Below, in pieces: positions 9,516 through 35,228 of a stretch of 64,000 nt of DNA; positions within the stretch are counted from its first letter, which is position 1; each line of letters opens with the position of its first letter. The translations under genes were made by a program, and so were the position numbers. The notes beneath the pieces were generated by a model. It worked only from the letters and a program-made list of their open reading frames with translations. It was not told the origin of the DNA and ran no database searches. The stretch comes from Lysobacteraceae bacterium (GTDB lineage Bacteria; Pseudomonadota; Gammaproteobacteria; Xanthomonadales; BQJN01): contig BQJN01000003.1 in the NCBI GenBank assembly GCA_021604725.1, forward strand, positions 2,416 to 66,415, given 5' to 3'.

Positions 9516-9588
9516 TCTTCACGGGTGTTAGCACCTTGAATTGTCGCGTCACGTCAACGCCGCGCGGTATAGTGTGCCGTATAAGCCT

Positions 9589-12500
9589 ATGGTCCGATTT
9601 CCTGCAACTGCCGCGCTAATGCTGCTGAGTCTATTGGCTCACTCGGTTCATGCTGGCCAGTCACCTGCCTACCTCAACTTCGAAAGCGGTCATGTCAGGC
9701 CATTGGCCTTGTCTTCCGATGGCAACACCTTGTACGCAGTCAATACGCCGGATGCGCGTCTGGAGGTTTTTTCGGTCAAGCGGGACGGGCTCGTCCATAT
9801 GCACTCCGTGCCGGTGGGTCTTGAGCCGGTTGCGGTGGCGCTAAATGGCGATGATCAGGCTTGGGTGGTCAACCATTTGTCCGATAGCGTTAGCGTTATA
9901 GATATGGCTTCTATGCGACCACAGGTGGTTCAGACCTTGCTGGTTGGTGACGAGCCTCGAGATATTGTGTTTGCTGGTGGTCAAGGCAAACGAGCCTTCA
10001 TCACCACCGCCCACCGCGGCCAAAGACGAACTGACGTAGCACTTTCTGATGTTCCCGGGGCAGGCGACCCGCAGCTGACGACTGCTGGCGTGGGTCGGGC
10101 CGACGTCTGGGTTTTTGACACACGGCAAATCGAGCGCACGCAAGTTGCGGGCGGGCGGCCGTTGGCGATTGTAACGCTGTTTGGTGATACCCCCAGGGCA
10201 TTGGCGGTTTCGCCGAATGGCAAGGCTGTATACGCGGCCGTTTTTCAGTCCGGCAACCGAACCACGGTGGTGTCGTCACTGCAGGTATGTGAGCAGACCG
10301 CCAGCGGCGTTTGTGATGGCGATGGCGTGACCTCGCCGGGCGGGTTGGTCGATGGGCAGCTACCTGCTGGCCCACTGTCGCCTACACATGATGCCAACGG
10401 CCATCCCGCGCCGCCGTCAAGTCTCATCGTCGAGCAGCAAGGTGACCAGGGCGTCTGGCTGGATGAGCTGGGCCGCAACTGGAGCAACGCGGTGCGGTTT
10501 CATCTTCCAGACTATGACGTATTCAAGATCAACGCTCGCTCGCTGCAGGTCAAGCGTCGTTACTCGCAGGTCGGCACCACCCTGTTCAATATGGCCGTCA
10601 ACCCGACCTCGGGTGCGCTGTACGTTAGCAATACTGAGGCCAACAATGCCACACGGTTCGTTGGCGACGGCCAGTTCGCTGGCAGCTCGGTACAGGGCCA
10701 CCTGGCACCGGCGCGCGTCACCGTCATTGACCGGGGCTCAGTGACGCCGCATCGACTCAACCCACATATCGACTACGCAGTCACCCCTGCCGCTGGTGGA
10801 GTAAAAGAGCATAGTTTGGCAACGCCGATGGGTATGGCGGTCAGTGCCGATGGCGGGACGCTATACCTCGCCGCGTTTGGGTCTGGCAAAGTCGGCGTCT
10901 TCAACACCGATACTCTGGAACGCGGCGACCTTGATCCTGAGCAAGCCAGTACTCAATACCTTCAGGTCAGTGGTGGCGGACCGAGCGGACTGGCCCTCGA
11001 CGATCACAATCAACGCTTGTTTGTGGCCACCCGCTTCGATAATGGCATCTCGATGATTGACCTTCAGACCGGGATTGAGCTCGATCATCAAACAATGCCC
11101 AGCCCGGAGCCTGAGTCCATCACGGAGGGTCGACGGCTGTTCTACGACGCCGCGTTTACTTCCTCCAATGGTGAGGCATCTTGCTCAAGCTGCCACATGT
11201 TCGGTGATACTGATCATTTGGCCTGGGATCTGGGCAATCCGCAGGGCGACATTGTCGACAACCCGTTGCCGATGAACATGAAGGTGGTGGCCACGACTTT
11301 GGGCCAGGCTGAGCCGAACATAAATGGCAGTGGCGTCGTTACCGATCTGCATCCAATGAAAGGGCCGCTGGTGACGCAAACACTTCGCGGTATTGCCCAC
11401 TCCGGTGCCATGCATTGGCGCGGTGATCGTGCGGTAGGTGAGTTCGCCAATGATGCCTTTGATGAGCGCGTTTCATTCATGAACTTCAATGAAGCCTTTC
11501 CAGCCCTGCTGGGTCGGAGTGCGCCGCTGGACACAGAGGATATGTCAGCCCTGACAGACTTTGGCCTGTCCATCGTTCAGCCGCCAAACCCCATTCGAGC
11601 GCTGGACAATCAGCTCAGCCAAGCGCAAGCGCGTGGCGCCGCGTTTTTCTTTGGAACACGTCGTGCCGTCGGCTCACCGATCGATTTTCTGGGCGGGTCA
11701 CCTGAGGGTTTTACCTGCGAGGGCTGTCATACCGTTGATCCCGCTGAGGGACAGTTTGGTACTGGCGGCCACGCGGCATTCGAATTCCTGCATCAGATCT
11801 TCAAAGTGCCGCAGTTGCGAAACCTGCACACCAAGGTGGGCATGTTCGGTGTGCCAAATCGCCCTTTTTTCAATGCCAGGAGCAACCACCACCTGGGGGC
11901 GCAGATACGGGGCTATGGCTTTTTGCACGATGGTGCGTCGGACACCATTTTCCGAAACTTCAGTATCCTGCCATTCAATGGCCGAAACACCGTGTTTGGG
12001 TCCACTGGGTTTCCGAATGATCAGGTCCGTCGGGACGTAGAGCAGTTCATGTTCGCGTTCGAGGGCGATCTGGCGCCTATTGTTGGGTCTCAGTTGACGG
12101 TCACTGCACCTGCGTCTGAGGCGGCAATAGAACGATTAGCCTTGCTGATCGAGCGTGCGCAACAGCCCTTTGTCTCGCGAATTTTGGGCGGTGAGGTTAC
12201 GGAAGCTGATTTGGTGGTTTTGGGCACCATTGATGAGCAGCCGCGCGGATGGATGATGCAGGGCGATGCCTTTACCTCTGATCGGCGCTCTGAGCCAGAC
12301 TATTCGATCGATCAGCTACTCGATCTGGCGCAGCACCAGGCGCTAACTTTCACGGCAGTACCGCCCGGCTACGGTGCGCGTATCGCACTGGATCGTGATC
12401 TCGATGGCATATACAACGCCGATGACGTCTGTCCAGCAGTGTTCGATTCGAACCAGTTCGATCAGGATTCGGATGGCGTTGGCGACCTTTGTGATAACTG

Positions 12501-12732
12501 TGAAATGTATGCCAATGGCAACCAGCGCGATAGCAATGGCGATGGCATAGGCAATGCGTGCGATGCTGACCTGAATAATGATGGCGCGGTGGACTTCGCT
12601 GATTTTGCAATCATGGTCGGCGTGCTGTTCTCGGCGCATGATGGCGATGCAGATCTCGATGGCAACGGTCAGGTCGACTTAAATGACCTGGCCAGGTTGC
12701 AGGAACTGTGGGGCGCTGTCAGCAGCGGATAG
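9589..12732 (+). CDS. secreted multidomain protein: YVTN-type beta-propeller + di-haem cytochrome c peroxidase/MauG-like domain + thrombospondin type 3 / dockerin-like Ca-binding repeats
   Basis: Signal peptide MVRFPATAALMLLSLLAHSVHA (ATG 9589; the track starts at TTG 9541). Propeller blades LYAVNTPD.., AWVVNHLSDSVSVID, LYVSNTE.., LFVATRFDNGISMID. Two CxxCH haem motifs: CSSCH 11182-11196 and CEGCH 11716-11730. CCP-family motifs FKVPQLRN and GFLHDGA. C-terminal DQDSDGVGDLCDNC, DSNGDGIGNACD, DLNNDGAVDFADF, DLDGNGQVDLNDL. Confidence 0.8.
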   Translation: MVRFPATAALMLLSLLAHSVHAGQSPAYLNFESGHVRPLALSSDGNTLYAVNTPDARLEVFSVKRDGLVHMHSVPVGLEPVAVALNGDDQAWVVNHLSDSVSVIDMASMRPQVVQTLLVGDEPRDIVFAGGQGKRAFITTAHRGQRRTDVALSDVPGAGDPQLTTAGVGRADVWVFDTRQIERTQVAGGRPLAIVTLFGDTPRALAVSPNGKAVYAAVFQSGNRTTVVSSLQVCEQTASGVCDGDGVTSPGGLVDGQLPAGPLSPTHDANGHPAPPSSLIVEQQGDQGVWLDELGRNWSNAVRFHLPDYDVFKINARSLQVKRRYSQVGTTLFNMAVNPTSGALYVSNTEANNATRFVGDGQFAGSSVQGHLAPARVTVIDRGSVTPHRLNPHIDYAVTPAAGGVKEHSLATPMGMAVSADGGTLYLAAFGSGKVGVFNTDTLERGDLDPEQASTQYLQVSGGGPSGLALDDHNQRLFVATRFDNGISMIDLQTGIELDHQTMPSPEPESITEGRRLFYDAAFTSSNGEASCSSCHMFGDTDHLAWDLGNPQGDIVDNPLPMNMKVVATTLGQAEPNINGSGVVTDLHPMKGPLVTQTLRGIAHSGAMHWRGDRAVGEFANDAFDERVSFMNFNEAFPALLGRSAPLDTEDMSALTDFGLSIVQPPNPIRALDNQLSQAQARGAAFFFGTRRAVGSPIDFLGGSPEGFTCEGCHTVDPAEGQFGTGGHAAFEFLHQIFKVPQLRNLHTKVGMFGVPNRPFFNARSNHHLGAQIRGYGFLHDGASDTIFRNFSILPFNGRNTVFGSTGFPNDQVRRDVEQFMFAFEGDLAPIVGSQLTVTAPASEAAIERLALLIERAQQPFVSRILGGEVTEADLVVLGTIDEQPRGWMMQGDAFTSDRRSEPDYSIDQLLDLAQHQALTFTAVPPGYGARIALDRDLDGIYNADDVCPAVFDSNQFDQDSDGVGDLCDNCEMYANGNQRDSNGDGIGNACDADLNNDGAVDFADFAIMVGVLFSAHDGDADLDGNGQVDLNDLARLQELWGAVSSG

Positions 12733-12826
12733 CAAGCTGGTCCGACTCGCCAGTGGCGGCCGACGCGAACTGAATGTATTGTGGTTCACCAATTGGTTAC
12801 CACAGCAATAACAAAGGGGACTCCCA

Positions 12827-13465
12827 ATGAGATCTATAGCTGCCATTGTTTTGATGATCGCTGCCGCCGCGGCACAAGCTGCCACCGTCACGGTTGTCAA
12901 CTACTCGTATTGGGATATCCACTATCTGTACATTTCACCATCCGCTTCGAACAATTGGGGCCCCGATCAGCTGGGCAATCAAATCCTGGGGTCTGACCAG
13001 CAAATAACGCTGAAAATGGGCACCGGCGATTGGGATGTGCGGCTGGTAGATGAAGATGGTGATGAATGCGTTGTATTCGCTGTGCCGGTAAGAGGTGGCA
13101 GCGACAGCTGGGAAATCACCAACGACGACCTGCTCGATTGCCAGTCTGAAACCGAAACCGGTGGTGGCTATTCGGCTCAAGGTGCCGGTGGAACAGCCGA
13201 ACTTTATAACGGCACCAGTTACGATATTTACGAGATCTACCTGTCACCAACTCGCCAAAATACCTGGGGCCGAGACTTGCTCGGTAATCAGATTCTGTAT
13301 ACCGGTGAGACGTTTCAATTGTCGAATATCAGTTGTGACAACTATGACGTACGTATTGTCGATGAGGACGATGATGTATGTGAGTACAGCGGTGAATACA
13401 TTTGTGGCGATGCCGGCACCTGGCACCTGACCGACGATGAGTTGCTGAGCTGTCAGGGGTATTGA
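12827..13465 (+). CDS. small secreted protein made of two copies of an unnamed ~90-aa domain
   Basis: Signal peptide MRSIAAIVLMIAAAAAQA. Residues ~19-108 and ~122-212 align: Y.I..+Y+SP...N.WG.D.LGNQIL......L......+DVR+VDED.D.C......G...W.+T.D+LL.CQ. Confidence 0.7.
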   Translation: MRSIAAIVLMIAAAAAQAATVTVVNYSYWDIHYLYISPSASNNWGPDQLGNQILGSDQQITLKMGTGDWDVRLVDEDGDECVVFAVPVRGGSDSWEITNDDLLDCQSETETGGGYSAQGAGGTAELYNGTSYDIYEIYLSPTRQNTWGRDLLGNQILYTGETFQLSNISCDNYDVRIVDEDDDVCEYSGEYICGDAGTWHLTDDELLSCQGY

Positions 13466-13645
13466 GCTGGCCCATCATCTATCGCGACAAGCAAATAGCT
13501 AGGCCTAAGGTCACTGGACAGTGGCGGCTGCCGTTACTATGCTCAGAGGCTATGCTTTCTATAGGGATCATGTACGCAGCCAATTGGGCTGTTAACACGC
13601 CTGCTTGTACCGGGCTATTTAACCAATGAAAACAGGGGATGAACG

Positions 13646-13861
13646 ATGTCCAAGTTAGTTGATTTGATGAAGGACTTAGGCCAGGACGCAAGTCTTGCCA
13701 ACGAATATCAGAATGACGCTGATGGCGTGATGAAACGGTATGGCCTCAGTGATGAAGAATGCGCGGCGATGAAGTCCTGTGATGTCGACAAGATCAAGCA
13801 GATGAGTGGCTTGAGTGATGTGCATGTGACCACCAACAGCACAATCAAAGCCTTCGAATAG
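13646..13861 (+). CDS. candidate split-borosin (SonA-like) RiPP precursor peptide
   Basis: 71 aa, with AGGGGA 6 nt upstream of the ATG. Acidic helical N-terminal ~50 aa (LGQDASLANEYQNDADGVMKRYGLSDEECAAM), then the tail SGLSDVHVTTNSTIKAFE. Same strand and operon as an OphMA-like N-methyltransferase. Noticeably lower GC than the flanking genes by eye. Confidence 0.65.
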   Translation: MSKLVDLMKDLGQDASLANEYQNDADGVMKRYGLSDEECAAMKSCDVDKIKQMSGLSDVHVTTNSTIKAFE

Positions 13862-13872
13862 ATGGTTGAGCG

Positions 13873-15630
13873 GTGGCCAGCAGAGTGAAATTGATTGCCG
13901 CCGGTTTCGTCGCTCTGCTGACCGCTGCCAGTGTTGACTCAGTCGACTTGCAGTCCGAGTTGGATCGAGCGGCCCATCTTAATGTGACCGCACCCTGGGA
14001 GGAGTCCCAGCAGGTGCTTGATGCGATTGAGCCGCAGATGCACACCGCAACGCCCCGTCAACGGGGCCAGTTCGAGTTTATCGCCGCGCGCAATCGGGCA
14101 CTGGCCGGCGATTGCGACGCAGCGGTTTCGTCACTCCAACGTTTGCGAAGCGCCGACTCTGACCCGGATCAACGGTTGGGTGCCTATCGCCTTTCTGCCA
14201 ACTGCGCTCTCAATCAGGGGGACTTCGAACAGGGGTTCAGCTTTTTGTCGCTCGGGTTGAGCTTGTTGCCTGAGGTCGAAGCGTCCAGTGAGAAGACCAT
14301 GATTCTCGGCTTGGCGACCTACTACCATAGTCAGGCTGGTGAGCCAGCCAAAGCCTTGGAGTATGCGCAACAGGCGATGGATCTGGCCGCTCTGGACGAC
14401 GACCAGCGCGGGCTCTGCATGGCACTGTTCGACCTATCCTTGGCCGAGGAGAACGCGGGCGCCATTAGAGAGGCCTCAGTGTCAGCCAGGTCTGCCGTTG
14501 AGTCCTGCAAGGCCGCTCAGGACCCTGTCTATGTTGGTGCATCTCAGGTTCAATACGGCGAGTTGCTAAGTGAACTAGGTGATCATGAAGGTGCCAGACG
14601 AGCGGTTGAGGCCGGTCTAGGGTCTATGCAAGAGGCGGGGTATCGCGACGGTGTTATGCGTGGCCAATTGACCCTGGCCCACATTCTGGTTCAACTCGGC
14701 GACAGTTCGCAGGCCACCCAATTGCTACGCCCCCTGGTGGATGAGTTCGAGCGAATGGAGTATTGGCGTGACTTACGCGAAACGCTAATTTTGTTGGCCA
14801 CTCTCGGTGCCGAAGTCGGCGACTATGAACAGCCATATCATGACCTGCTTCGCGCGGAGGCTGCTAATGATAAGTACCTCGATGGTGACAGGGCCATGCG
14901 ATTGAGCTTGTTACAGGTACAGTTCGACACTTTGCACAAAGAGCAGGAGATTGAACTGTTGCGAGAGCGTAACCGCTTGCTCGAAGTGCAGGAGCAGGCG
15001 CAAAATGAGCGACGGCAACTGGTCACCTGGGGCTTGTTCATTCTGGCCGTGATCGGTGCTTTCCTTTTTATGTTGCTGTTGCGCACTCGCTCAGATCGCC
15101 GCCATCTGCTTTGGTTGTCTGAACATGATGGCTTGACCGGTCTTAGCAACCACACCACCTTTTTCAACCGCGCCTCGGTGACTCTGGAAGAGTGTTTATC
15201 TCAAGGGCGCCCGGCCGTTCTTTTCGTAGCTGACATCGATCATTTCAAACGCACCAACGACGAGCACGGTCATGCTTGTGGCGATGAGGTCTTGCGTCAT
15301 GTTGGGGTGGCGATGGTTAATACGTTTAGCCGATCCGACATCGTAGGTCGCGTCGGCGGTGAGGAGTTTGCCGCACTGCTGCCTGACCATACGGCGGTTG
15401 AAGCGAAAGGCATGATCGCCCAGTTTCACAAGCGGTTGAGCGAAGAAGAGGGCGCTTCTGAGCTGCCTCCAATTACGCTCAGTTACGGCTTGGCCGAAGC
15501 ATCACAAGGCCAAACGCTGGAGGCATTGCGTCAGACCGCAGATGAGGCTCTTTACGTGGCCAAACGCCGAGGGCGTAACCAGATCGTTGAGGCGGCGACG
15601 CTAACACCTGCACAAGAGGTCAGCGCTTGA
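13873..15630 (+). CDS. membrane diguanylate cyclase: periplasmic TPR-like helical-repeat sensor + GGDEF domain
   Basis: GTG start. N-terminal signal/anchor, ~370 aa helical repeats, a coiled coil, and a single TM (WGLFILAVIGAFLFMLLL). The GGDEF domain has HDGLTGLSNH and an intact GGEEF active site. The stop TGA 15628-15630 overlaps the TTG start of the next gene. Confidence 0.85.
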   Translation: MASRVKLIAAGFVALLTAASVDSVDLQSELDRAAHLNVTAPWEESQQVLDAIEPQMHTATPRQRGQFEFIAARNRALAGDCDAAVSSLQRLRSADSDPDQRLGAYRLSANCALNQGDFEQGFSFLSLGLSLLPEVEASSEKTMILGLATYYHSQAGEPAKALEYAQQAMDLAALDDDQRGLCMALFDLSLAEENAGAIREASVSARSAVESCKAAQDPVYVGASQVQYGELLSELGDHEGARRAVEAGLGSMQEAGYRDGVMRGQLTLAHILVQLGDSSQATQLLRPLVDEFERMEYWRDLRETLILLATLGAEVGDYEQPYHDLLRAEAANDKYLDGDRAMRLSLLQVQFDTLHKEQEIELLRERNRLLEVQEQAQNERRQLVTWGLFILAVIGAFLFMLLLRTRSDRRHLLWLSEHDGLTGLSNHTTFFNRASVTLEECLSQGRPAVLFVADIDHFKRTNDEHGHACGDEVLRHVGVAMVNTFSRSDIVGRVGGEEFAALLPDHTAVEAKGMIAQFHKRLSEEEGASELPPITLSYGLAEASQGQTLEALRQTADEALYVAKRRGRNQIVEAATLTPAQEVSA

Positions 15631-16433
15631 CTGCCAGCTCAGCTCCTGCCGGGGAGCTGGTCATCGTTGGTGCCGGCATTCAGCTTGGTCGCCATATTTC
15701 GCAACGGGCATTAAGCGAGATCGAGCACGCTGATGTCGTGCTGTGTTTGGTCGATACCTTTGCCTTAAGTTGGCTAAAGCAGGTTCGCCCGGACCTGATC
15801 GAATTGAATGAACTGTATGGTCCTGGCAAGGACCGCCGCATCACCTACGCGGAGATGGAGGCGGCAATGTTGGCGCCGCTGCGCGAAGGCAAACGGGTGT
15901 GCACGGTTTTTTATGGACACCCTGGTGTGTTCGCCGACGCGCCCCATGCGGCAATGGTTCGCGCTAGAGCCGAAGGGTACCTTGCCCGTATGGAGCCGGG
16001 AGTGTCAGCCGATGCCTGCCTGTTTGCCGACCTTGGCTTCGACCCCGGGTTGCATGGCGTGCAGTCATTTGAGGCGACGCAGTATTTGATCTATCAGCGA
16101 AACATTGATCCCAGTGCCTTGTTGATTCTGTGGCAAGTGGCCTTGGTCGGTGATTTAAGCTGCAAGGTGATGACCACGACACCTCAGCGGCGACAACTTC
16201 TGGTGGACAAGCTGTTGACGGTCTATCCGCTGCAAACCGAGGTCATTTTGTATGAAGCAGCGACGGTGCCGGTGCAGCAGCCACGAATTGACAGAATGCC
16301 AATCGAGGCCCTTCCAAATGCCAGCTATGTCGAACATACAACGTTGGTCATTCCTCCGGCGGTAAAACTGGTGCCTGATCGCGCCATGCGTGACCAGCTT
16401 ATGGAAATGGCGCCGATAGTTGATTCGAATTGA
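15627..16433 (+). CDS. borosin-type peptide backbone alpha-N-methyltransferase (TP_methylase fold; OphMA/SonM-like)
   Basis: 268 aa. Block-by-block match to the OphMA methyltransferase domain as recalled: [61 protein letters not shown]. No cobalamin or sirohaem genes nearby. Confidence 0.8.
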   Translation: [268 protein letters not shown]

Positions 16434-17085
16434 CTCCTCGGACATAACTGTGAATGTGCCCCTTGAACGGCGCTTCAAGGTATGAGGTATCGACCGGCTT
16501 GTTCTTGCTGTGGCCATAACCGAGGGCCAGCATCAACTTGGAAAACCTGCCTTCGTTTTTGCGTCCAGGGTCGACAATAATCACCTCACACTTTTGCTTG
16601 GCATGAGCGTCGATGAACGAAGCCAGCAGCCTGGCGTGGTCGGGTTCGTACAGCAAATCGCTGCCGATGATCAGATCAAAAGCGCCCAGCTCATCATCGA
16701 GGTCAGCCCAGCCGGTTCGGTCGAACGGGATTACTGGTCCGTCGTTCAAGGCAGCGTTGCGTCGCAGAAAGCTCTCGGTTTCGGGGTGGTGATCGGTCGC
16801 TGTGATGTCAGTTCTACGGTAGTTCAGGACAAGGCTGGCCAGGGCAATGCCGCAGCCCACCTCGAGGATGCGTTTGCCTGCAACTTCGAAGTCAAGCATG
16901 TGGTGAGCGAGAACTTGAGCCGAGGGCCAGACAATACCGAACATCGGCCAGTTGGCAGACGATATGCCAAGCTTCTCGGCCACGCCCTCAAGGTCAGAAA
17001 ACTGTTGATTGTCGCGCAGGGTTCTCAAGTGCACATCGAATGCACCAACCTCCAGGGTCTGGTAGCGAAGGCGCAGAACTGACAT
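16399..17085 (-). CDS. class I SAM-dependent methyltransferase (Methyltransf_16 / protein-lysine MTase-like)
   Basis: ILEVGCGIALASLVL (motif I), TDITATD, FDLIIGSDLLYEPDH. I prefer the ATG ending at 17085 (AGGA upstream) over the track start at 17133. Its 3' end overlaps the convergent gene by 35 nt. Confidence 0.75.
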   Translation of the reverse strand: MSVLRLRYQTLEVGAFDVHLRTLRDNQQFSDLEGVAEKLGISSANWPMFGIVWPSAQVLAHHMLDFEVAGKRILEVGCGIALASLVLNYRRTDITATDHHPETESFLRRNAALNDGPVIPFDRTGWADLDDELGAFDLIIGSDLLYEPDHARLLASFIDAHAKQKCEVIIVDPGRKNEGRFSKLMLALGYGHSKNKPVDTSYLEAPFKGHIHSYVRGVNSNQLSAPFP

Positions 17086-17248
17086 GGCATTATCCTGAGT
17101 AGGGATCGCAAAGAAGCAGGCTAATTGCAACACCTTGACGGATTACGCACGCAAGCGGATTGGTCAGAGCTTCCCTTAATCTACACCCACGCCCCGTATT
17201 GCGCCATTGGCGCTGTACAGTAGTCGCCAGAAAAATGACAATGGTGGG

Positions 17249-17764
17249 ATGAGTCTTGACGAACAACTCAGAGAACTGCTTGTTCAACTTCGCGATGAAC
17301 GGGTGAACTATGCACTGATTGGCGGGCTTGCCATGAACGTTCATGCCAGGCCCCGTGCTACCGCTGATATCGATTTGCTGGTGGCCGCTTCGGATCACGA
17401 TTTACTGTGCCGGCTGCTGAAGAGATTGAGCTATGTTGTACTTGATGATCGGCCAGAGCTGGCAAGTTTCGTACGAGGGGGACAGCGCGTCGATGCGCTA
17501 TTCGCCACAGGTGAGCACGCGAAAGAGTTTCTCACCGAGTCACGATTGATTGAGGGAGTGGATGGTCTCCGCGTAGTCACGCCCGAGGCGCTTATCGCGC
17601 TGAAACTGCAGGCGTTCAATGATGATCCACGCCGACTGCAAGACCTGGCCGACATTATGGGGTTGGTTGAACACAACAAAGATGCCCTTGATGTCGAGCG
17701 CCTGCGGGGCTACTTTGAGATATTCCAGCGTCTTGAGCTTTTCGATGAGCTGTTTGCCCAATGA
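17249..17764 (+). CDS. minimal nucleotidyltransferase (pol-beta superfamily, MNT-like)
   Basis: GG-x13-DID signature (IGGLAMNVHARPRATADIDLLV). The start could be ATG 17249 or TTG 17207. Confidence 0.6.
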   Translation: MSLDEQLRELLVQLRDERVNYALIGGLAMNVHARPRATADIDLLVAASDHDLLCRLLKRLSYVVLDDRPELASFVRGGQRVDALFATGEHAKEFLTESRLIEGVDGLRVVTPEALIALKLQAFNDDPRRLQDLADIMGLVEHNKDALDVERLRGYFEIFQRLELFDELFAQ

Positions 17765-17973
17765 TTACTGATCGATTGACTGCCGAGAGCCTTGCGGCCC
17801 GAGGCAAAGAGCACTCACCCACTGCGGTAGAGCAGTGGGAGCAACAGCGCCTCGCCGCCATGTCGCAACAGCAGCGTTTCGACGAGGGGCTGCAGCTGAG
17901 TAGTGTTGCCATGGCCATGCGGAGGCATGCGCCGGACCACCAGCCCATCGGTGGCAAGGTGTTCATTCTTTAG
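17761..17973 (+). CDS. small hypothetical protein coupled to the nucleotidyltransferase gene
   Basis: 70 aa with an ATGA overlap with the upstream gene (17761-17764). No recognisable domain. Confidence 0.35.
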   Translation: MITDRLTAESLAARGKEHSPTAVEQWEQQRLAAMSQQQRFDEGLQLSSVAMAMRRHAPDHQPIGGKVFIL

Positions 17974-30529: not shown

Positions 30530-31227
30530 ACATCCTGATCGTCGAAGATGAGGCCGTGGTGGCCCGTCGCTTGTGCCGCATGGTCGCCAGTTGTCTGCAC
30601 ATCACGCCACGGGACGTGGTCATGAAGCAGTCACTGGCGGAGGCGCGTTTGTGGTTAAGTGAGCAACGGGCCGATGTCCTTTTTCTCGATTTGAATCTGG
30701 CCGGTCAGGATGGCTTTGACCTTCTTGCCGAGGCGGTGGCCGGCCCACAACATACCATTGTCGTCTCGGCCAATACCGATCGGGCAATGGAGGCGTTTGA
30801 ATACGGCGTGCTGGACTTTATTGGCAAGCCATTTGACATCGAGCGGGTAGGCAAGGCACTCCAACGTTTGCATACCAATACCGCACCGCATGAGCGCTTG
30901 CGCTTCCTCACGGTACGTGGCCACAAGGGGTTGGAACGCATACCGATCAAGCAGATTATCGCCATTCACGGTGCCGGCGATTATGCCGAATTGGAATTGG
31001 CTGATGGGCGTCGCTTGTTGCACGACAAATCACTGACCCGCTTGGCGCAAATTCTGCCGAAAGACTTTCGCCGCATCCACCGCTCACATATCCTCAGGGT
31101 GGATCAGGTTCGACATTTTCAGTGTCAGCCCGGCAGTCGCTATGTGGTTGAACTGCGCAATGGCGATACCCTGCCGGTCGGTCGTAAGCGAGCCGCCGAG
31201 CTGCGAGATTGGCTCAATTCAGTTTGA
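30526..31227 (+). CDS. LytR/AlgR family response regulator (receiver + LytTR DNA-binding domain)
   Basis: ILIVEDE...VLFLDLNL receiver domain. C-terminal LytTR domain (IIAIHGAGDYAELEL...FRRIHRSHILRVDQV). ATGA overlap with the kinase gene. Confidence 0.9.
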   Translation: MNILIVEDEAVVARRLCRMVASCLHITPRDVVMKQSLAEARLWLSEQRADVLFLDLNLAGQDGFDLLAEAVAGPQHTIVVSANTDRAMEAFEYGVLDFIGKPFDIERVGKALQRLHTNTAPHERLRFLTVRGHKGLERIPIKQIIAIHGAGDYAELELADGRRLLHDKSLTRLAQILPKDFRRIHRSHILRVDQVRHFQCQPGSRYVVELRNGDTLPVGRKRAAELRDWLNSV

Positions 31228-33183
31228 ACCAATCAGGTGCTTCTGGAAAAACATCATGACGATCTGCGTGTAAAGGTCGCGGTTTTCCTTCTTGCGAAAG
31301 CCGTGACCCTCATTCAACGCATTCATGTACCAGACCGACTGGCCGTTGTCGCGCAATGCAGCAACGATCTGCTCCGACTCGGTGACTGGAACACGGGGGT
31401 CGTTTTGCCCCTGCGCTACGAACATCGGCACGTTCATTTTGTCGACATGGTTGTTGGGGCTAATTGCCTCAAGGTGCTTGCGCATGGCCGGATCGCGCTC
31501 ATCGCCGTATTCGACCCGTCGCAAATCCTGTCGATAACTCTGGGTGTTTTCCAGGAAAGTGACGAAATTGGAAATGCCTACGATGTCGACCACCGCATTG
31601 ATGCGATCGGAATAGTGCACCGCGCAGGCCAGCACCATGTAGCCACCGTAACTGCCGCCGTAAACAGCGACGCGGTTGGCGTCCAGATTAGGTTGCGTCG
31701 CGATCCAGTCCAGCAAGGCGCCGATATCCTTGACCGAATCCTCGCGTTGATACCCGTTGTCCAGCGCGACATAGGTCTTGCCATAGCCGGCAGAGCCACG
31801 GACGTTGGGCACGACAACGGCGGCACCGAGCTCATCGATCCACATTTGATAGGTGGAGGAAAAACTCGGCCGCGCCTGGCCTTCGGGTCCGCCATGAATG
31901 CGGATGATCACCGGATGTGGTCCGTCGCCTTGCGGCCGGTAAACAAAAGCAGGAATCTTGCGGGCTGCGCCGTCGACCTGATCGAAGGTGGGGTAGTGCA
32001 CCAGGTCGGGAACAGCAAATTTGGACGAGTCCAGACCACCCGTTTCGCTAAACGTCCAACGCGTCAGCTCACCGCTGTCCAGTGGCGCATCACCCAGCGC
32101 CAGAACAAAGGTGTCGGACGGTGTTTGCGGCGTGTTCAAGCTCATCGCCAAACGGTCGGCATCGGGTGAGAAAGCGAACTCGCCGATGATGCCAACGGGG
32201 ATGGAGCTCACTTTCTGATAGTCGCGATTGGCCGGGTCAAATAGATAGAGCTGGCTCATGCCGTCTTCATTGGTGGTAAACGCACCTCGCTGGCCGTCTT
32301 CAGACAGCGCGAACCCGCTCACATCCCAATTCAGATCAGAGGTGATTTCAATGGTCACCGCATCGGCGTCCAAACCACGATAGGACAAGGTGGTGAACTC
32401 GCCACCTGCGTCGGTAAGAAAGTAAAAGCCACGACCATTGGGAGCAAACGCCAGCGGGAAGTTGCGGCTTTGCGTTTTGTCGTCGCCAACCAGAAGCTGG
32501 CTTTCCGTTGACTCCAGGTCGACCAGATAAATGGACGACTGGGTGGAGCTGACATACTTGATCACCAGCAGTGACTTGCCGTCTGGTGAAAAATCGGTAG
32601 GTCCCCACCAGGCCCCGCCCGGTGCGGGAAGTACCAGTCTGGCCGCTTCTGGGGAGTCTGGGTCCATCACCCAGATATCATTTGCCGCGCCGTTTCGGCG
32701 CGTACTTTGATAGGCGATGTGTTTCCCGGACTGATCAAAGATAACCGCACCATTGCGTGATTCGCCATCGGTCAACATGCGGTAGCTACCGTCGGCAGGA
32801 TCGAGCGCAAATAACTGACTGAACTCACTGCCACCGGCATCCATGGCGAAGATCAGCTCTTCGGACTTCGGATGCGAGGTGACCTCGCCAATGGGTTCAT
32901 CAAAAAATGTCAACTGATGGCGTGCACCGCCCGGCATATCTACTCGATGAATTTGCGCCACCTCGCCAAATCGGGTTCTGACAAACACCGATTCACCGTT
33001 GGCGGCAAAATCAAGAAAACTGGCATCTCGAACGTTGGAATAACGATTGAGAAGGTCGACCAGTGATTGCGGGACTTCGGGGACATCTTCGAGCAGCACA
33101 TTGCCGTCATTGGCGGTCCGCGATTCGAAGGCTAAAGCCTGATGGACCAGGCTCAGCAGGGCAATGGCGACAATGACTCTCAT
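31219..33183 (-). CDS. secreted S9 family serine peptidase (beta-propeller + prolyl oligopeptidase catalytic domain)
   Basis: Signal peptide MRVIVAIALLSLVHQALA. Catalytic Ser motif GGSYGGYM. QGQNDPRV and NEGHGF supply the Asp/His region. Confidence 0.85.
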   Translation of the reverse strand: MRVIVAIALLSLVHQALAFESRTANDGNVLLEDVPEVPQSLVDLLNRYSNVRDASFLDFAANGESVFVRTRFGEVAQIHRVDMPGGARHQLTFFDEPIGEVTSHPKSEELIFAMDAGGSEFSQLFALDPADGSYRMLTDGESRNGAVIFDQSGKHIAYQSTRRNGAANDIWVMDPDSPEAARLVLPAPGGAWWGPTDFSPDGKSLLVIKYVSSTQSSIYLVDLESTESQLLVGDDKTQSRNFPLAFAPNGRGFYFLTDAGGEFTTLSYRGLDADAVTIEITSDLNWDVSGFALSEDGQRGAFTTNEDGMSQLYLFDPANRDYQKVSSIPVGIIGEFAFSPDADRLAMSLNTPQTPSDTFVLALGDAPLDSGELTRWTFSETGGLDSSKFAVPDLVHYPTFDQVDGAARKIPAFVYRPQGDGPHPVIIRIHGGPEGQARPSFSSTYQMWIDELGAAVVVPNVRGSAGYGKTYVALDNGYQREDSVKDIGALLDWIATQPNLDANRVAVYGGSYGGYMVLACAVHYSDRINAVVDIVGISNFVTFLENTQSYRQDLRRVEYGDERDPAMRKHLEAISPNNHVDKMNVPMFVAQGQNDPRVPVTESEQIVAALRDNGQSVWYMNALNEGHGFRKKENRDLYTQIVMMFFQKHLIGSN

Positions 33184-35228
33184 GATGCAACTCCAATAAC
33201 AGATAGCACGAACGCATACTCGCGGGCGGTGTCTTCAAGACGCTGATAGCGCCCTGAACCGCCGCCATGGCCCGCGCTCATATCGGTGAATAATAACAAC
33301 TGATGGTTGCCCGTTTTCTGATCACGAAGACGGGCCACCCATTTTGCCGGCTCCCAATACTGTACCTGCGAATCCCACAGGCCGGTAGCCACATACATAT
33401 GCGGATAGCGCTGGGGCTTCACCTGGTCGTAAGGCGAATATGCCAGCATGTAGTCGTAGAACGAAGGATCGTTTGGATTGCCCCATTCATCGTACTCGAA
33501 GGTGGTCAGGGGAATGGTCTCGTCGAGCATGGTGGTGACCACATCGACAAAGGGCACCCCGGTCGTTAATGCTGCAAAGGTGTCCGCAGCCATGTTGGCG
33601 ACCGCGCCAATCAGCAACCCGCCCGCACTGCGGCCACTGCCGACTACTTTGCTGGCATCGCCCCAACCTATCTCCACCAGCCCTTTCGCCACATCGATGA
33701 AGTCGTGAAAGGTGTTGAGCTTGTTCAGCAAACGTCCTTGTTCGTACCAGTGCCGCCCCATCTCCTCACCACCACGGATATGGGCAATGGCAAATACAAA
33801 GCCGCGATCGACCAGGCTGAACACGTCGCGTCGAAACTCGGGTTCATACCACAGGCCATAGGCACCGTAGCCGAGGATAAAAATCGGGTGGCACCCATCG
33901 GGCCTGGCATCAGCCTGGCAAAGCAGCGTGGCCAACACCTCGGTGCCATCGCGGGCGCTGACGCTGACGCGATGTGTGCGGTAGCCACTCGACTGAAAAT
34001 CATCACCGGCAAAGGCCCGTTTGCGCTGGGTTTTTTCGCCGCTTGCCAGTTCCAGATCGAACACCGTGTGTGGCGTGGTGAGCGACGCGTAGCTGTAGCG
34101 CAGCGTCTCGATGCGGCTGTCCGGCGTGTACTGCATCGCCATGGCGTAGGCCGGTTCATCTGAGTCAATCAGCGCTTGCTGACCGCTCGGCTGTAGCACC
34201 CGCAAGTTCAGGTTGCCACGCTCGACCTCTGCGGTGACGATGAAGCGGCCGTATACGCCGACGTCGTGCAGCAAGACTTCGTCGCGATGAGGCAGTACTT
34301 CCTGCCAGCTTGAGCGATCCGTCGCCTTGTTCAGCGGTGCTCGCCACAAGGCAAAGTTCACCGCATCTTGATTGGAACGAATCAACACATCGTCACCTTG
34401 AATCTCGATATCGTATTCATGGCCAGATTGGCGAGGAATGAGCGGCTCAAACTCGCCTTCGATGTTGTGTTTGTCGAGGATGCGAATCTCGCTGGTCAGT
34501 GTGCTGGACAGGGTGATCAACAGATGCTTTCGATCGCGCGCCGGGTGCAGGCTCAAGTAGTAACTCGGGTCCGCCTCTTCGTAGACCAGGACGTCGTCGT
34601 CGACGCAGGTGCCGATTCGATGGCGCCAGACCTGATGCGGAATCAGCGTCTCCTGTTGCAGGCGAACATAGAACAGGGTGAGGTGGTCGCCCCCCCAGGC
34701 CAGATTTGGCGACACGCGTTCGATCACGGTCTGTGTTTTCCCGCTGCCATCCAGCGCGCGCAATTTCAGCGTGTATTCATGGCGACTGACGGTATCCTCG
34801 GTCCAGGCCAACCATTGATCATCCCCGCTGATGGCATAATCGCCGACCTTGTAATAGTCGTGGTCGGCACCCAGCACATTCTCGTCGAGCAATACTTGCT
34901 CGGCTTCGCTGCCAACCTTGCGTCGCGCATAGATCGCCTGCTCTTTATCCTTCTCCAGTCGACGGTAATACTCGTAGCCATCGAGCTCGACCGGCACCGA
35001 TACGTCATCGCCCGGCATCCGCGCCTTCAGTTCTTCGAACAGGGTTTGCTGCAGCTCGGCGGTCGGTGCCAAAACATGTTCGGTCCAGGCGTTTTCTGCC
35101 TCAAGGTAGGCGAGCACGTCCGGGTCCTTGCGTTGGTCATCCCGCAGCCAGTAATAGTTGTCGATGCGCGTATGGCCGTGGGTGGTTATTGGGTGCGGTC
35201 GCTTGCTGGCGACAGGGGGCTTGGTCAT
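33180..35228 (-). CDS. ptrB: oligopeptidase B (S9A)
   Basis: 682 aa. N-terminal HGHTRIDNYYWLRD, Ser motif GRSAGGLLIG, and C-terminal SAGHGG. ATGA overlap with the downstream S9 peptidase gene. Confidence 0.85.
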   Translation of the reverse strand: MTKPPVASKRPHPITTHGHTRIDNYYWLRDDQRKDPDVLAYLEAENAWTEHVLAPTAELQQTLFEELKARMPGDDVSVPVELDGYEYYRRLEKDKEQAIYARRKVGSEAEQVLLDENVLGADHDYYKVGDYAISGDDQWLAWTEDTVSRHEYTLKLRALDGSGKTQTVIERVSPNLAWGGDHLTLFYVRLQQETLIPHQVWRHRIGTCVDDDVLVYEEADPSYYLSLHPARDRKHLLITLSSTLTSEIRILDKHNIEGEFEPLIPRQSGHEYDIEIQGDDVLIRSNQDAVNFALWRAPLNKATDRSSWQEVLPHRDEVLLHDVGVYGRFIVTAEVERGNLNLRVLQPSGQQALIDSDEPAYAMAMQYTPDSRIETLRYSYASLTTPHTVFDLELASGEKTQRKRAFAGDDFQSSGYRTHRVSVSARDGTEVLATLLCQADARPDGCHPIFILGYGAYGLWYEPEFRRDVFSLVDRGFVFAIAHIRGGEEMGRHWYEQGRLLNKLNTFHDFIDVAKGLVEIGWGDASKVVGSGRSAGGLLIGAVANMAADTFAALTTGVPFVDVVTTMLDETIPLTTFEYDEWGNPNDPSFYDYMLAYSPYDQVKPQRYPHMYVATGLWDSQVQYWEPAKWVARLRDQKTGNHQLLLFTDMSAGHGGGSGRYQRLEDTAREYAFVLSVIGVAS

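Follow-up and report, generated by a model that had tools for sequence, protein, structure and literature searches.

A probable type IV split borosin operon with a diguanylate cyclase gene between precursor and methyltransferase in a Lysobacteraceae bacterium

Three adjacent genes were analysed in a 64,000-nucleotide stretch of contig BQJN01000003.1 of a Lysobacteraceae bacterium (the whole stretch is referred to here as the window). An earlier note, made from the sequence of this stretch alone, had proposed that two of its open reading frames (ORFs) form a split borosin, a pathway in which a small precursor peptide and the enzyme that would methylate its backbone are encoded separately. Both ORFs lie where that note had placed them, at 13646-13861 and 15627-16433. 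It had also supposed that there was an operon partner; such a partner exists, and what the note had left unnamed is a membrane diguanylate cyclase with tetratricopeptide repeats, a transmembrane helix and a GGDEF domain (TPR-TM-GGDEF), whose gene fills the 1.8-kb gap between the two. The region 13646-16433 thus very probably forms a single type IV split borosin operon with the gene order sonA-dgc-sonM. Its features are as follows.

13466-13645: intergenic region of 180 bp ahead of the precursor gene
13634-13639, + strand: Shine-Dalgarno (SD) sequence AGGGGA of the precursor gene, 6 nt before the ATG (read from the sequence)
13646-13861, + strand: sonA-like borosin precursor gene, 71 aa, ATG start (ORF list, SonA match, model)
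13646-13804, + strand: codons 1-53 of the precursor, borosin-binding domain or leader (SonA homology)
13805-13858, + strand: codons 54-71 of the precursor, hinge SG plus core tail LSDVHVTTNSTIKAFE (SonA homology)
13873-15630, + strand: partner diguanylate cyclase gene, 585 aa (Pfam GGDEF/TPR, hydropathy, motif scan)
15614-15630, + strand: translational-coupling junction (SD plus stop/start overlap, read from the sequence)
15627-16433, + strand: sonM-like peptide backbone alpha-N-methyltransferase gene, 268 aa, TTG start (SonM homology)

All three ORFs run head to tail on the + strand. The precursor and cyclase genes are separated by 11 nt, and the TGA stop of the cyclase (15628-15630) overlaps the TTG start of the methyltransferase (15627) in the string TTGA, an overlap of 4 nt that places the methyltransferase in the -1 frame. 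The SD of the precursor gene had been described as good in the earlier note; that of the methyltransferase, AAGAGG, occupies 15614-15619, 7 nt ahead of the TTG. The short gap, the TTGA overlap and the presence of an SD ahead of both outer genes are the basis for reading the region as an operon, the promoter of which probably lies in the intergenic region 13466-13645. A programmed frameshift that would join the cyclase to the methyltransferase was considered and rejected, there being no slippery heptamer ahead of the stop. Searches of the whole window against Rfam returned nothing that reached the gathering thresholds, and within 12700-17300 the sole match was a chance-level snoRNA (E=0.27), with no riboswitch or known RNA element.

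The ORF at 15627-16433 is predicted to be an S-adenosylmethionine (SAM)-dependent borosin alpha-N-methyltransferase and not a tetrapyrrole methylase. The blocks of sequence on which this had first been proposed, including LVIPP, are all present in its translation, and the one OphMA block of the note that was tested proved to be an exact match to OphMA residues 121-141. The best match among PDB sequences was SonM of Shewanella oneidensis (4.7e-70), with which the enzyme shares 49% identity over 240 residues in pairwise alignment; dbOphM (4.9e-42), OphMA (3.4e-41) and MroMA (6e-36) were also matched, whereas the precorrin-2 and uroporphyrin methylases reached only ~2e-3. The resemblance to OphMA that had been noted is therefore borne out, as is the tetrapyrrole-methylase fold, through a Pfam TP_methylase match (1.5e-21) that speaks for the general fold alone. 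A model made with AlphaFold2 had a predicted local distance difference test score (pLDDT) of 84, and when it was compared with the PDB by Foldseek SonM was again the top match, with a template modelling (TM) score of 0.85-0.87, followed by OphMA, dbOphMA and MroMA; all 50 of the matches listed were borosin enzymes.

The residues of SonM known from mutagenesis or structure to be important (PMC8429565) can be traced through the alignment. Y58, R67, Y71, Y93, F99, E146, W166 and Q167 of SonM correspond to Y64, R70, Y74, Y96, F102, E149, W169 and Q170 of the window enzyme, and E173 is replaced by D176. Both borosin signature motifs, YGHP (contained in FYGHPGVFA) and the DCLFAD-type motif, are present as defined previously (bioRxiv 10.1101/2021.12.24.474128). 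The stretches that hold them are the most conserved in the methyltransferase alignment and served as patterns for the genome scan described below.

A different identity for these two ORFs has to be weighed at this point, namely that 15627-16433 encodes a tetrapyrrole C-methyltransferase acting on precorrin, uroporphyrinogen or sirohaem and that the small ORF has nothing to do with it, encoding a LigA-like or NHLP-like protein. The Pfam match to TP_methylase would fit such an assignment, as would weak matches of the small ORF to LigA (19.4 bits) and to NHLP-clan models (17 bits) and the names given to homologues of the methyltransferase in databases, among them 'precorrin-6B methylase 1', 'precorrin-3B methylase' and 'siroheme synthase'; some homologues are labelled 'diguanylate cyclase'. 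NCBIfam release 20 holds no model specific to the borosin methyltransferase family, but its cobJ and cobM models score only 16.5 bits against a cut-off of 246 and 15.7 bits against 260, and no genes for cobalamin, sirohaem or haem d1 were found among the ~45 window ORFs scanned, in keeping with what the earlier note had said of the neighbourhood. Grouping with CobA/CysG/SUMT had been named in advance as an outcome that would count against a borosin; the methylase instead groups with the borosin enzymes. Since the SonM match dominates and the Foldseek matches listed are all borosin enzymes, the CobA/CysG/SUMT identity is rejected.

The readings of the small ORF as a LigA subunit or as an NHLP/Nif11-type leader fare no better. 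The LigA score lies below the curated Pfam cut-off of 25.3 bits and no LigB gene is adjacent, while NF038399 gives 17 bits against a cut-off of 40 and TIGR04351 gives 16.4 against 65. SonA itself has been deposited as 'LigA domain-containing protein', and the weak LigA match is explained by the appearance of LigAB and DesB behind SonA in the fold search described below. Taken with the methyltransferase evidence, a tetrapyrrole methylase with an unrelated small neighbour is an extremely improbable account of the locus, and the precorrin-type labels carried by homologues are a systematic misannotation of the borosin methyltransferase family.

On the evidence of homology and modelling the 71-aa protein is identified as a SonA-type precursor and the predicted substrate of the 268-aa methyltransferase. 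The SonA chains of the PDB were matched by phmmer at 1.3e-9 to 8.5e-9 over residues 1-58/61. An AlphaFold2 model, built from four sequences (pLDDT 81), contains five helices at residues 3-13, 15-23, 25-32, 36-44 and 47-54, with lower confidence for the tail that comes after them. The first 29 PDB matches to this model found by Foldseek were all SonA, with target-normalised TM-scores of up to 0.87, and superposition on the SonA crystal chains gave a root-mean-square deviation of 1.0-1.6 A at 37-42% identity; LigAB and DesB came after these 29 matches, with E>1. The likeness to SonA in size and layout, which had been proposed in the earlier note, is thus found in both sequence and fold, and the description of the N-terminal ~50 residues as acidic and helical also holds, residues 1-53 having 11 acidic and 7 basic side chains. 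Compared with its closest relative, the precursor of locus L001, to which it is 82% identical, the gene shows 0.11 non-synonymous substitutions per site (dN) and a proportion of synonymous differences (pS) of 0.69, near saturation, with a ratio of non-synonymous to synonymous rates (omega) of ~0.06. The low dN beside nearly saturated synonymous sites argues that the precursor gene is real and under strong purifying selection. A profile of four precursor sequences, run against 1.84 billion proteins, retrieved 284 representative clusters at E<=1e-3; the matches listed are mostly ~70 residues long. Homologues of the precursor also adjoin methylases of this type in dozens of further genomes.

The C-terminus of the window precursor reads S54-G55-LSDVHVTTNSTIKAFE, ending ...TTNSTIKAFE. 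It fits the pattern of the clade in which the precursor comes first, [TS]-G-L-x-[DE]-G-Q-[FY]-A-T-N-[HS]-T-I-K-A-Y-[DE]; Wenzhouxiangella-like split loci have ...HLTNSTIKAY, and independent precursor representatives carry a tail of like kind. I67 is the sole hydrophobic tail position kept across the clade, being I or V in 48 of 48 sequences. Among 44 loci the mean pairwise distance rises from the methyltransferase (0.35) through the binding domain (0.49), the GGDEF domain (0.52) and the core (0.55) to the TPR region (0.63). The core, at 0.55 against 0.49 and 0.52 for the binding and GGDEF domains, is therefore not hypervariable, unlike the usual core of a peptide that is made by the ribosome and then modified post-translationally (RiPP). 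A literature search with the core motif strings gave nothing relevant.

The gene between the two, 13873-15630, is predicted to encode a membrane diguanylate cyclase with the architecture signal/anchor-TPR-TM-GGDEF (Pfam GGDEF 3.4e-37, TPR_MalT 5.5e-12). Its parts, all on the + strand, are listed here.

aa 7-26: hydrophobic signal or anchor (hydropathy)
aa 27-380: TPR region of ~350 aa, predicted periplasmic (Pfam, hydropathy)
aa 381-407, nt 15013-15093: strong transmembrane (TM) helix (hydropathy)
aa 417-570, nt 15121-15582: cytoplasmic GGDEF domain (Pfam)
aa 495-499, nt 15355-15369: intact GGEEF motif (motif scan)

The TPR region is placed in the periplasm because the GGDEF domain requires cytoplasmic GTP, and the TPR part of such TPR-TM-GGDEF proteins has been predicted to be periplasmic before (bioRxiv 10.1101/2021.12.24.474128). 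Nearly all cyclases next to related methyltransferases have the same layout, usually with an N-terminal hydrophobic segment, a TM helix at ~380-410 and GG[DE]EF at ~495.

Relatives of the methyltransferase were collected by scanning one genome per species, and the best 80 of 590 confirmed loci were kept, searched with all three window proteins and sorted by the arrangement around their 83 methyltransferase ORFs. The largest group (28 of the 83), mainly from Lysobacterales, has a precursor followed by a cyclase-methyltransferase fusion, the arrangement known as type X. The order seen in the window, precursor-cyclase-methyltransferase, was found for 17 (Wenzhouxiangella, Thiolapillus, Sedimenticola, Natronospira and others) and the Shewanella order, methyltransferase-(precursor)-cyclase, for 26 (Dyella, Rhodanobacter, Rheinheimera). 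Five had a fusion or a cyclase-methyltransferase pair with no precursor detected, and the remaining seven were contig ends or ORF-calling artefacts. A cyclase thus adjoins at least 76 of the 83. The trio found in the window also recurs, with different flanks, around two metagenomic relatives of its precursor that are 82% and 58% identical to it. When the flanking ORFs of 84 loci were clustered, no family was common to more than six loci and no conserved protease, exporter or second tailoring gene was found, which agrees with the absence of such genes remarked on in the earlier note and indicates that the module is self-contained.

Cyclase and methyltransferase are fused in frame in 32 of the sampled methyltransferase genes, with ~10 residues from the last GGDEF helix to the first methyltransferase strand, and the stop/start of the window falls exactly at the fusion point of its type X relatives. 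Loci L001-L003 and others are also split, so that the split in the window is not a sequencing error, and a 4-nt NTGA overlap is present at 11 of the 20 split cyclase/methyltransferase junctions. Given that the two proteins are co-translated here and fused in many relatives, it is almost certain that peptide methylation and cyclic di-GMP (c-di-GMP) synthesis work jointly on the inner side of the membrane.

Some loci of the survey depart from these arrangements. In a Dokdonella metagenome-assembled genome (L017, 685-6762) two complete precursor-[cyclase::methyltransferase] units stand in tandem, and in L055 (3977-8851) and L067 (6605-11184) a single methyltransferase lies between two precursor-cyclase pairs. 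Natronospira elongata (L021) has, just 5' of a normal 71-aa precursor, an ORF of 180 aa (2058-2600) with an N-terminal segment like the borosin-binding domain and an apparent response-regulator receiver domain; the neighbouring partner is of 1007 aa and has no GG[DE]EF.

The best studied relative is the son cluster of S. oneidensis MR-1, which comprises SonM (SO1478), SonA (SO1479), a GGDEF protein (SO1480) and a cation efflux pump (SO1481) (PMC10549244). Its product, shewanellamide A, is a cleaved and methylated 16-mer that exists in S. oneidensis and corresponds to SonA residues 56-71, that is to all that follows the S54-G55 hinge; it was seen only in cell pellets, at very low titre, and not in Shewanella supernatants, and the native role of borosins has been called elusive (PMC10549244). 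The window operon shares with this cluster a discrete methyltransferase in which the probed catalytic and lock residues are kept, a precursor of 71 aa with a five-helix binding domain, an S54-G55 hinge and a 16-residue tail, a GGDEF cyclase (TPR-TM-GGDEF in the window) and the lack of a protease or second tailoring enzyme. It differs in gene order, which is methyltransferase-precursor-cyclase in the son cluster but precursor-cyclase-methyltransferase in the window, and in the core, which is LSDVHVTTNSTIKAFE in the window and DSSYQSYLVISHGNGD in SonA. Since length and hinge are shared with SonA, the likely product is a linear N-methylated 16-mer, LSDVHVTTNSTIKAFE, with boundaries as in shewanellamide A; these boundaries agree with the placing of the core within the last ~15 residues in the earlier note.

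A second comparison is with the type X borosins, in which TPR-TM-GGDEF is fused to the N-methyltransferase and which are mostly found in Xanthomonadales (Imani et al., bioRxiv 10.1101/2021.12.24.474128). These contain the nearest relatives of the window methyltransferase (54-60% identity), and they have the precursor upstream, the tail motif ...ATN[HS]TIKAYD, an identical cyclase architecture and a junction at the same residue. Type X enzymes are, however, one polypeptide where the window has two, separated by the TGA at 15628-15630 and the TTG at 15627 in another frame, and type X membership is therefore rejected. The locus is type IV by architecture because cyclase and methyltransferase are separate polypeptides; in addition, the precursor is separately encoded, with an N-terminal five-helix binding domain and a C-terminal core, and it lies in the same cluster and on the same strand as the methyltransferase with only the cyclase gene between them. 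A small gammaproteobacterial type IV group that clusters with type X has been described, and GGDEF has been reported as the commonest Pfam domain of split-borosin clusters, at 56% (bioRxiv 10.1101/2021.12.24.474128). The window locus belongs to this small group.

The fungal type I enzymes OphMA, dbOphMA and MroMA are alike in fold and motifs (E ~1e-41, 33-38% identity, query-normalised TM-score ~0.8-0.85) and presumably share the chemistry of the window enzyme. In these, however, the substrate is fused to the C-terminus of the enzyme and methylated in trans within the dimer, whereas the window precursor is separate; many methylations on hydrophobic cores are followed by macrocyclisation by a prolyl oligopeptidase, and there is no GGDEF partner. 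It is a prolyl oligopeptidase that matures fungal omphalotin. The window contains two tandem genes of the S9 prolyl-oligopeptidase family, at 31219-33183 and 33180-35228, both on the - strand. These were rejected as maturases: the precursor is devoid of proline, 15-19 kb separate these genes from the operon and no related protease is conserved at other loci.

By analogy with SonM and SonA, a homodimer of the methyltransferase would grip the precursor through the five-helix binding domain, and the tail would enter the active site beneath the side and top clamps. Y64, Y74 and R70 would pre-organise the site and stabilise the deprotonated amide, and one or a few backbone amides would be methylated in turn from the N-terminal to the C-terminal side, so that the enzyme is predicted to install backbone alpha-N-methyl groups on the core. 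The leader may then be trimmed after S54-G55 by proteases whose genes lie elsewhere in the genome, which would release the linear 16-mer. Synteny, translational coupling and repeated fusion suggest that this machinery would work together with the membrane diguanylate cyclase.

Several points weigh against this account. The cleavage of the leader is an assumption. The side clamp is three residues shorter than that of SonM and SonM F179 is replaced by M182; the number and position of methyl groups are therefore not transferable from SonA. The core is polar, rich in T, N and S, with T63 and S65 where SonA has L63 and I65, and it has no clear counterpart of the bulky Y62 that fixes the first methylation site in SonA (PMC11751858). 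No cation-efflux gene like that of Shewanella is found near the operon. A sigma-70-like site is present at 13515-13543, but such sites are not commoner here than in shuffled sequence; the counts of the promoter and terminator consensus scans were likewise not above those for shuffled sequence. The cues to the sites of methylation also disagree, with the SonA register pointing to T63 and S65, the bulky-residue rule to positions after H60/V61 and the hydrophobic pocket to I67.

The constant company of the cyclase raises the question of whether the module is a conventional natural-product pathway at all. It may instead be a c-di-GMP signalling device, in which the precursor stays on the methyltransferase as a small regulatory subunit, this complex is physically coupled to the membrane cyclase, as the recurrent fusions suggest, and methylation of the conserved tail, or dimerisation of the methyltransferase, switches the GGDEF activity; in the reverse direction, a periplasmic signal sensed by the TPR region would control methylation. 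Repeated fusion exactly at the split junction through a linker of ~10 residues, conserved translational coupling and the adjacency of the cyclase are all consistent with this, as are the lack of a conserved protease or exporter near the module, a core tail that, unusually for a RiPP, is not hypervariable and the confinement of shewanellamide A to cell pellets at very low titre. Gene fusion, however, indicates that functions act together and not which controls which, a cleaved methylated 16-mer does exist in S. oneidensis and there is no experimental link between borosins and c-di-GMP. Nor did a test of co-evolution between core and TPR region yield a specific signal: the partial Mantel correlation over 44 loci, with methyltransferase, GGDEF and binding-domain distances controlled, was -0.03 (p=0.62). 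A weak core-GGDEF partial correlation (r=0.21, p=0.006) falls within the known false-positive range of such tests. On balance a signalling device is considered unlikely; if it were true, backbone N-methylation would be a regulatory switch or a ligand for second-messenger synthesis, which would give RiPP-type chemistry a new role.

Short peptides and C-terminal acidic tails are common ligands of TPR domains. The cleaved methylated peptide could thus be exported and sensed by the periplasmic TPR region of the cyclase, as an autocrine or quorum-type signal of the sort detected by TPR peptide receptors. The tail does end in a conserved aromatic-acidic C-terminus. In the closest pair, the window and L001, the core tail (61% identical, dN 0.30) and the TPR region (56%, dN 0.41) have changed 5-9 times faster than the binding domain, GGDEF domain and methyltransferase, which together with the TM helix are 89-93% identical (dN 0.04-0.06). 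This pattern is not general, however, since other close pairs have nearly identical tails and very different TPR domains, and the lack of a specific core-TPR signal noted above tells against it, as do the lack of a conserved exporter and the absence of the peptide from Shewanella supernatants. An exported ligand of the TPR region must be thought quite improbable, and the preferred reading remains a split borosin operon.

The surroundings of the operon in the window are those of an ordinary chromosome, with the atp operon directly downstream, then bioBFHC, pntAB, PBP1A and pilMNOPQ. AtpA shares no more than 85% identity with any database protein, and its best named matches come from Marinicella, Wenzhouxiangella and 'Xanthomonadales' metagenome-assembled genomes; in line with the nearest relatives of the methyltransferase, this makes the host an uncultivated gammaproteobacterium close to Wenzhouxiangellaceae and Marinicellaceae. 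Directly 5' of the precursor gene, at 12827-13465 (+), is a gene whose 212-aa product has an N-terminus like a signal peptide and contains two internal repeats of ~85 aa (...LY[IL]SP...N.WG.D.LGNQIL...YDVR.VDED.D.C...); Pfam and NCBIfam gave no match for this product. The gene holds the same position in L001 (7179-7817) but is not next to the precursor in L002 or L003, and so probably lies outside the module. Further upstream, 9541-12732 (+) encodes an apparently secreted 1063-aa protein with a lactonase/SGL-type beta-propeller, a weak di-haem CCP_MauG-like segment and C-terminal calcium-binding repeats of thrombospondin-type-3/EF-hand-like character. On the other side, a class I SAM methyltransferase gene (Methyltransf_16, lysine-methyltransferase-like, 2e-10) at 16399-17133 (-) runs towards the borosin methyltransferase gene, the last 35 nt of which it overlaps; its adjacency to the module is not kept in more distant loci. 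Between the borosin and atp operons, at 17207-17973 (+), an AbiEii/nucleotidyltransferase-like ORF (185 aa) overlaps by 4 nt the 70-aa ORF that comes after it, and the two may be a toxin-antitoxin-like pair.

The locus is an added example of a published family rather than a new kind, the class being, as the earlier note had recognised, already described. Existing catalogues list more than 1500 bacterial borosin pathways as well as 746 type IV methyltransferases, and the GGDEF partner has been reported (PMC10549244; bioRxiv 10.1101/2021.12.24.474128), so that the present work mainly confirms and extends published genome mining. It does show that database labels of the 'precorrin methylase' type are wrong for the borosin methyltransferase family. 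There is no characterised product from this subclade, and the unusually polar, T/N/S-rich core could widen the known substrate range. Designers of peptide drugs prize backbone N-methylation, and discrete borosin methyltransferases are under development as biocatalysts, for which the window locus offers a compact pair of enzyme and precursor. Beyond the window, the general question is why a TPR-GGDEF cyclase accompanies these modules, adjacent or fused, in nearly every case. Because the closely related type X fusions sit in the membrane and are less easily handled, the split version found here is convenient for testing that link.

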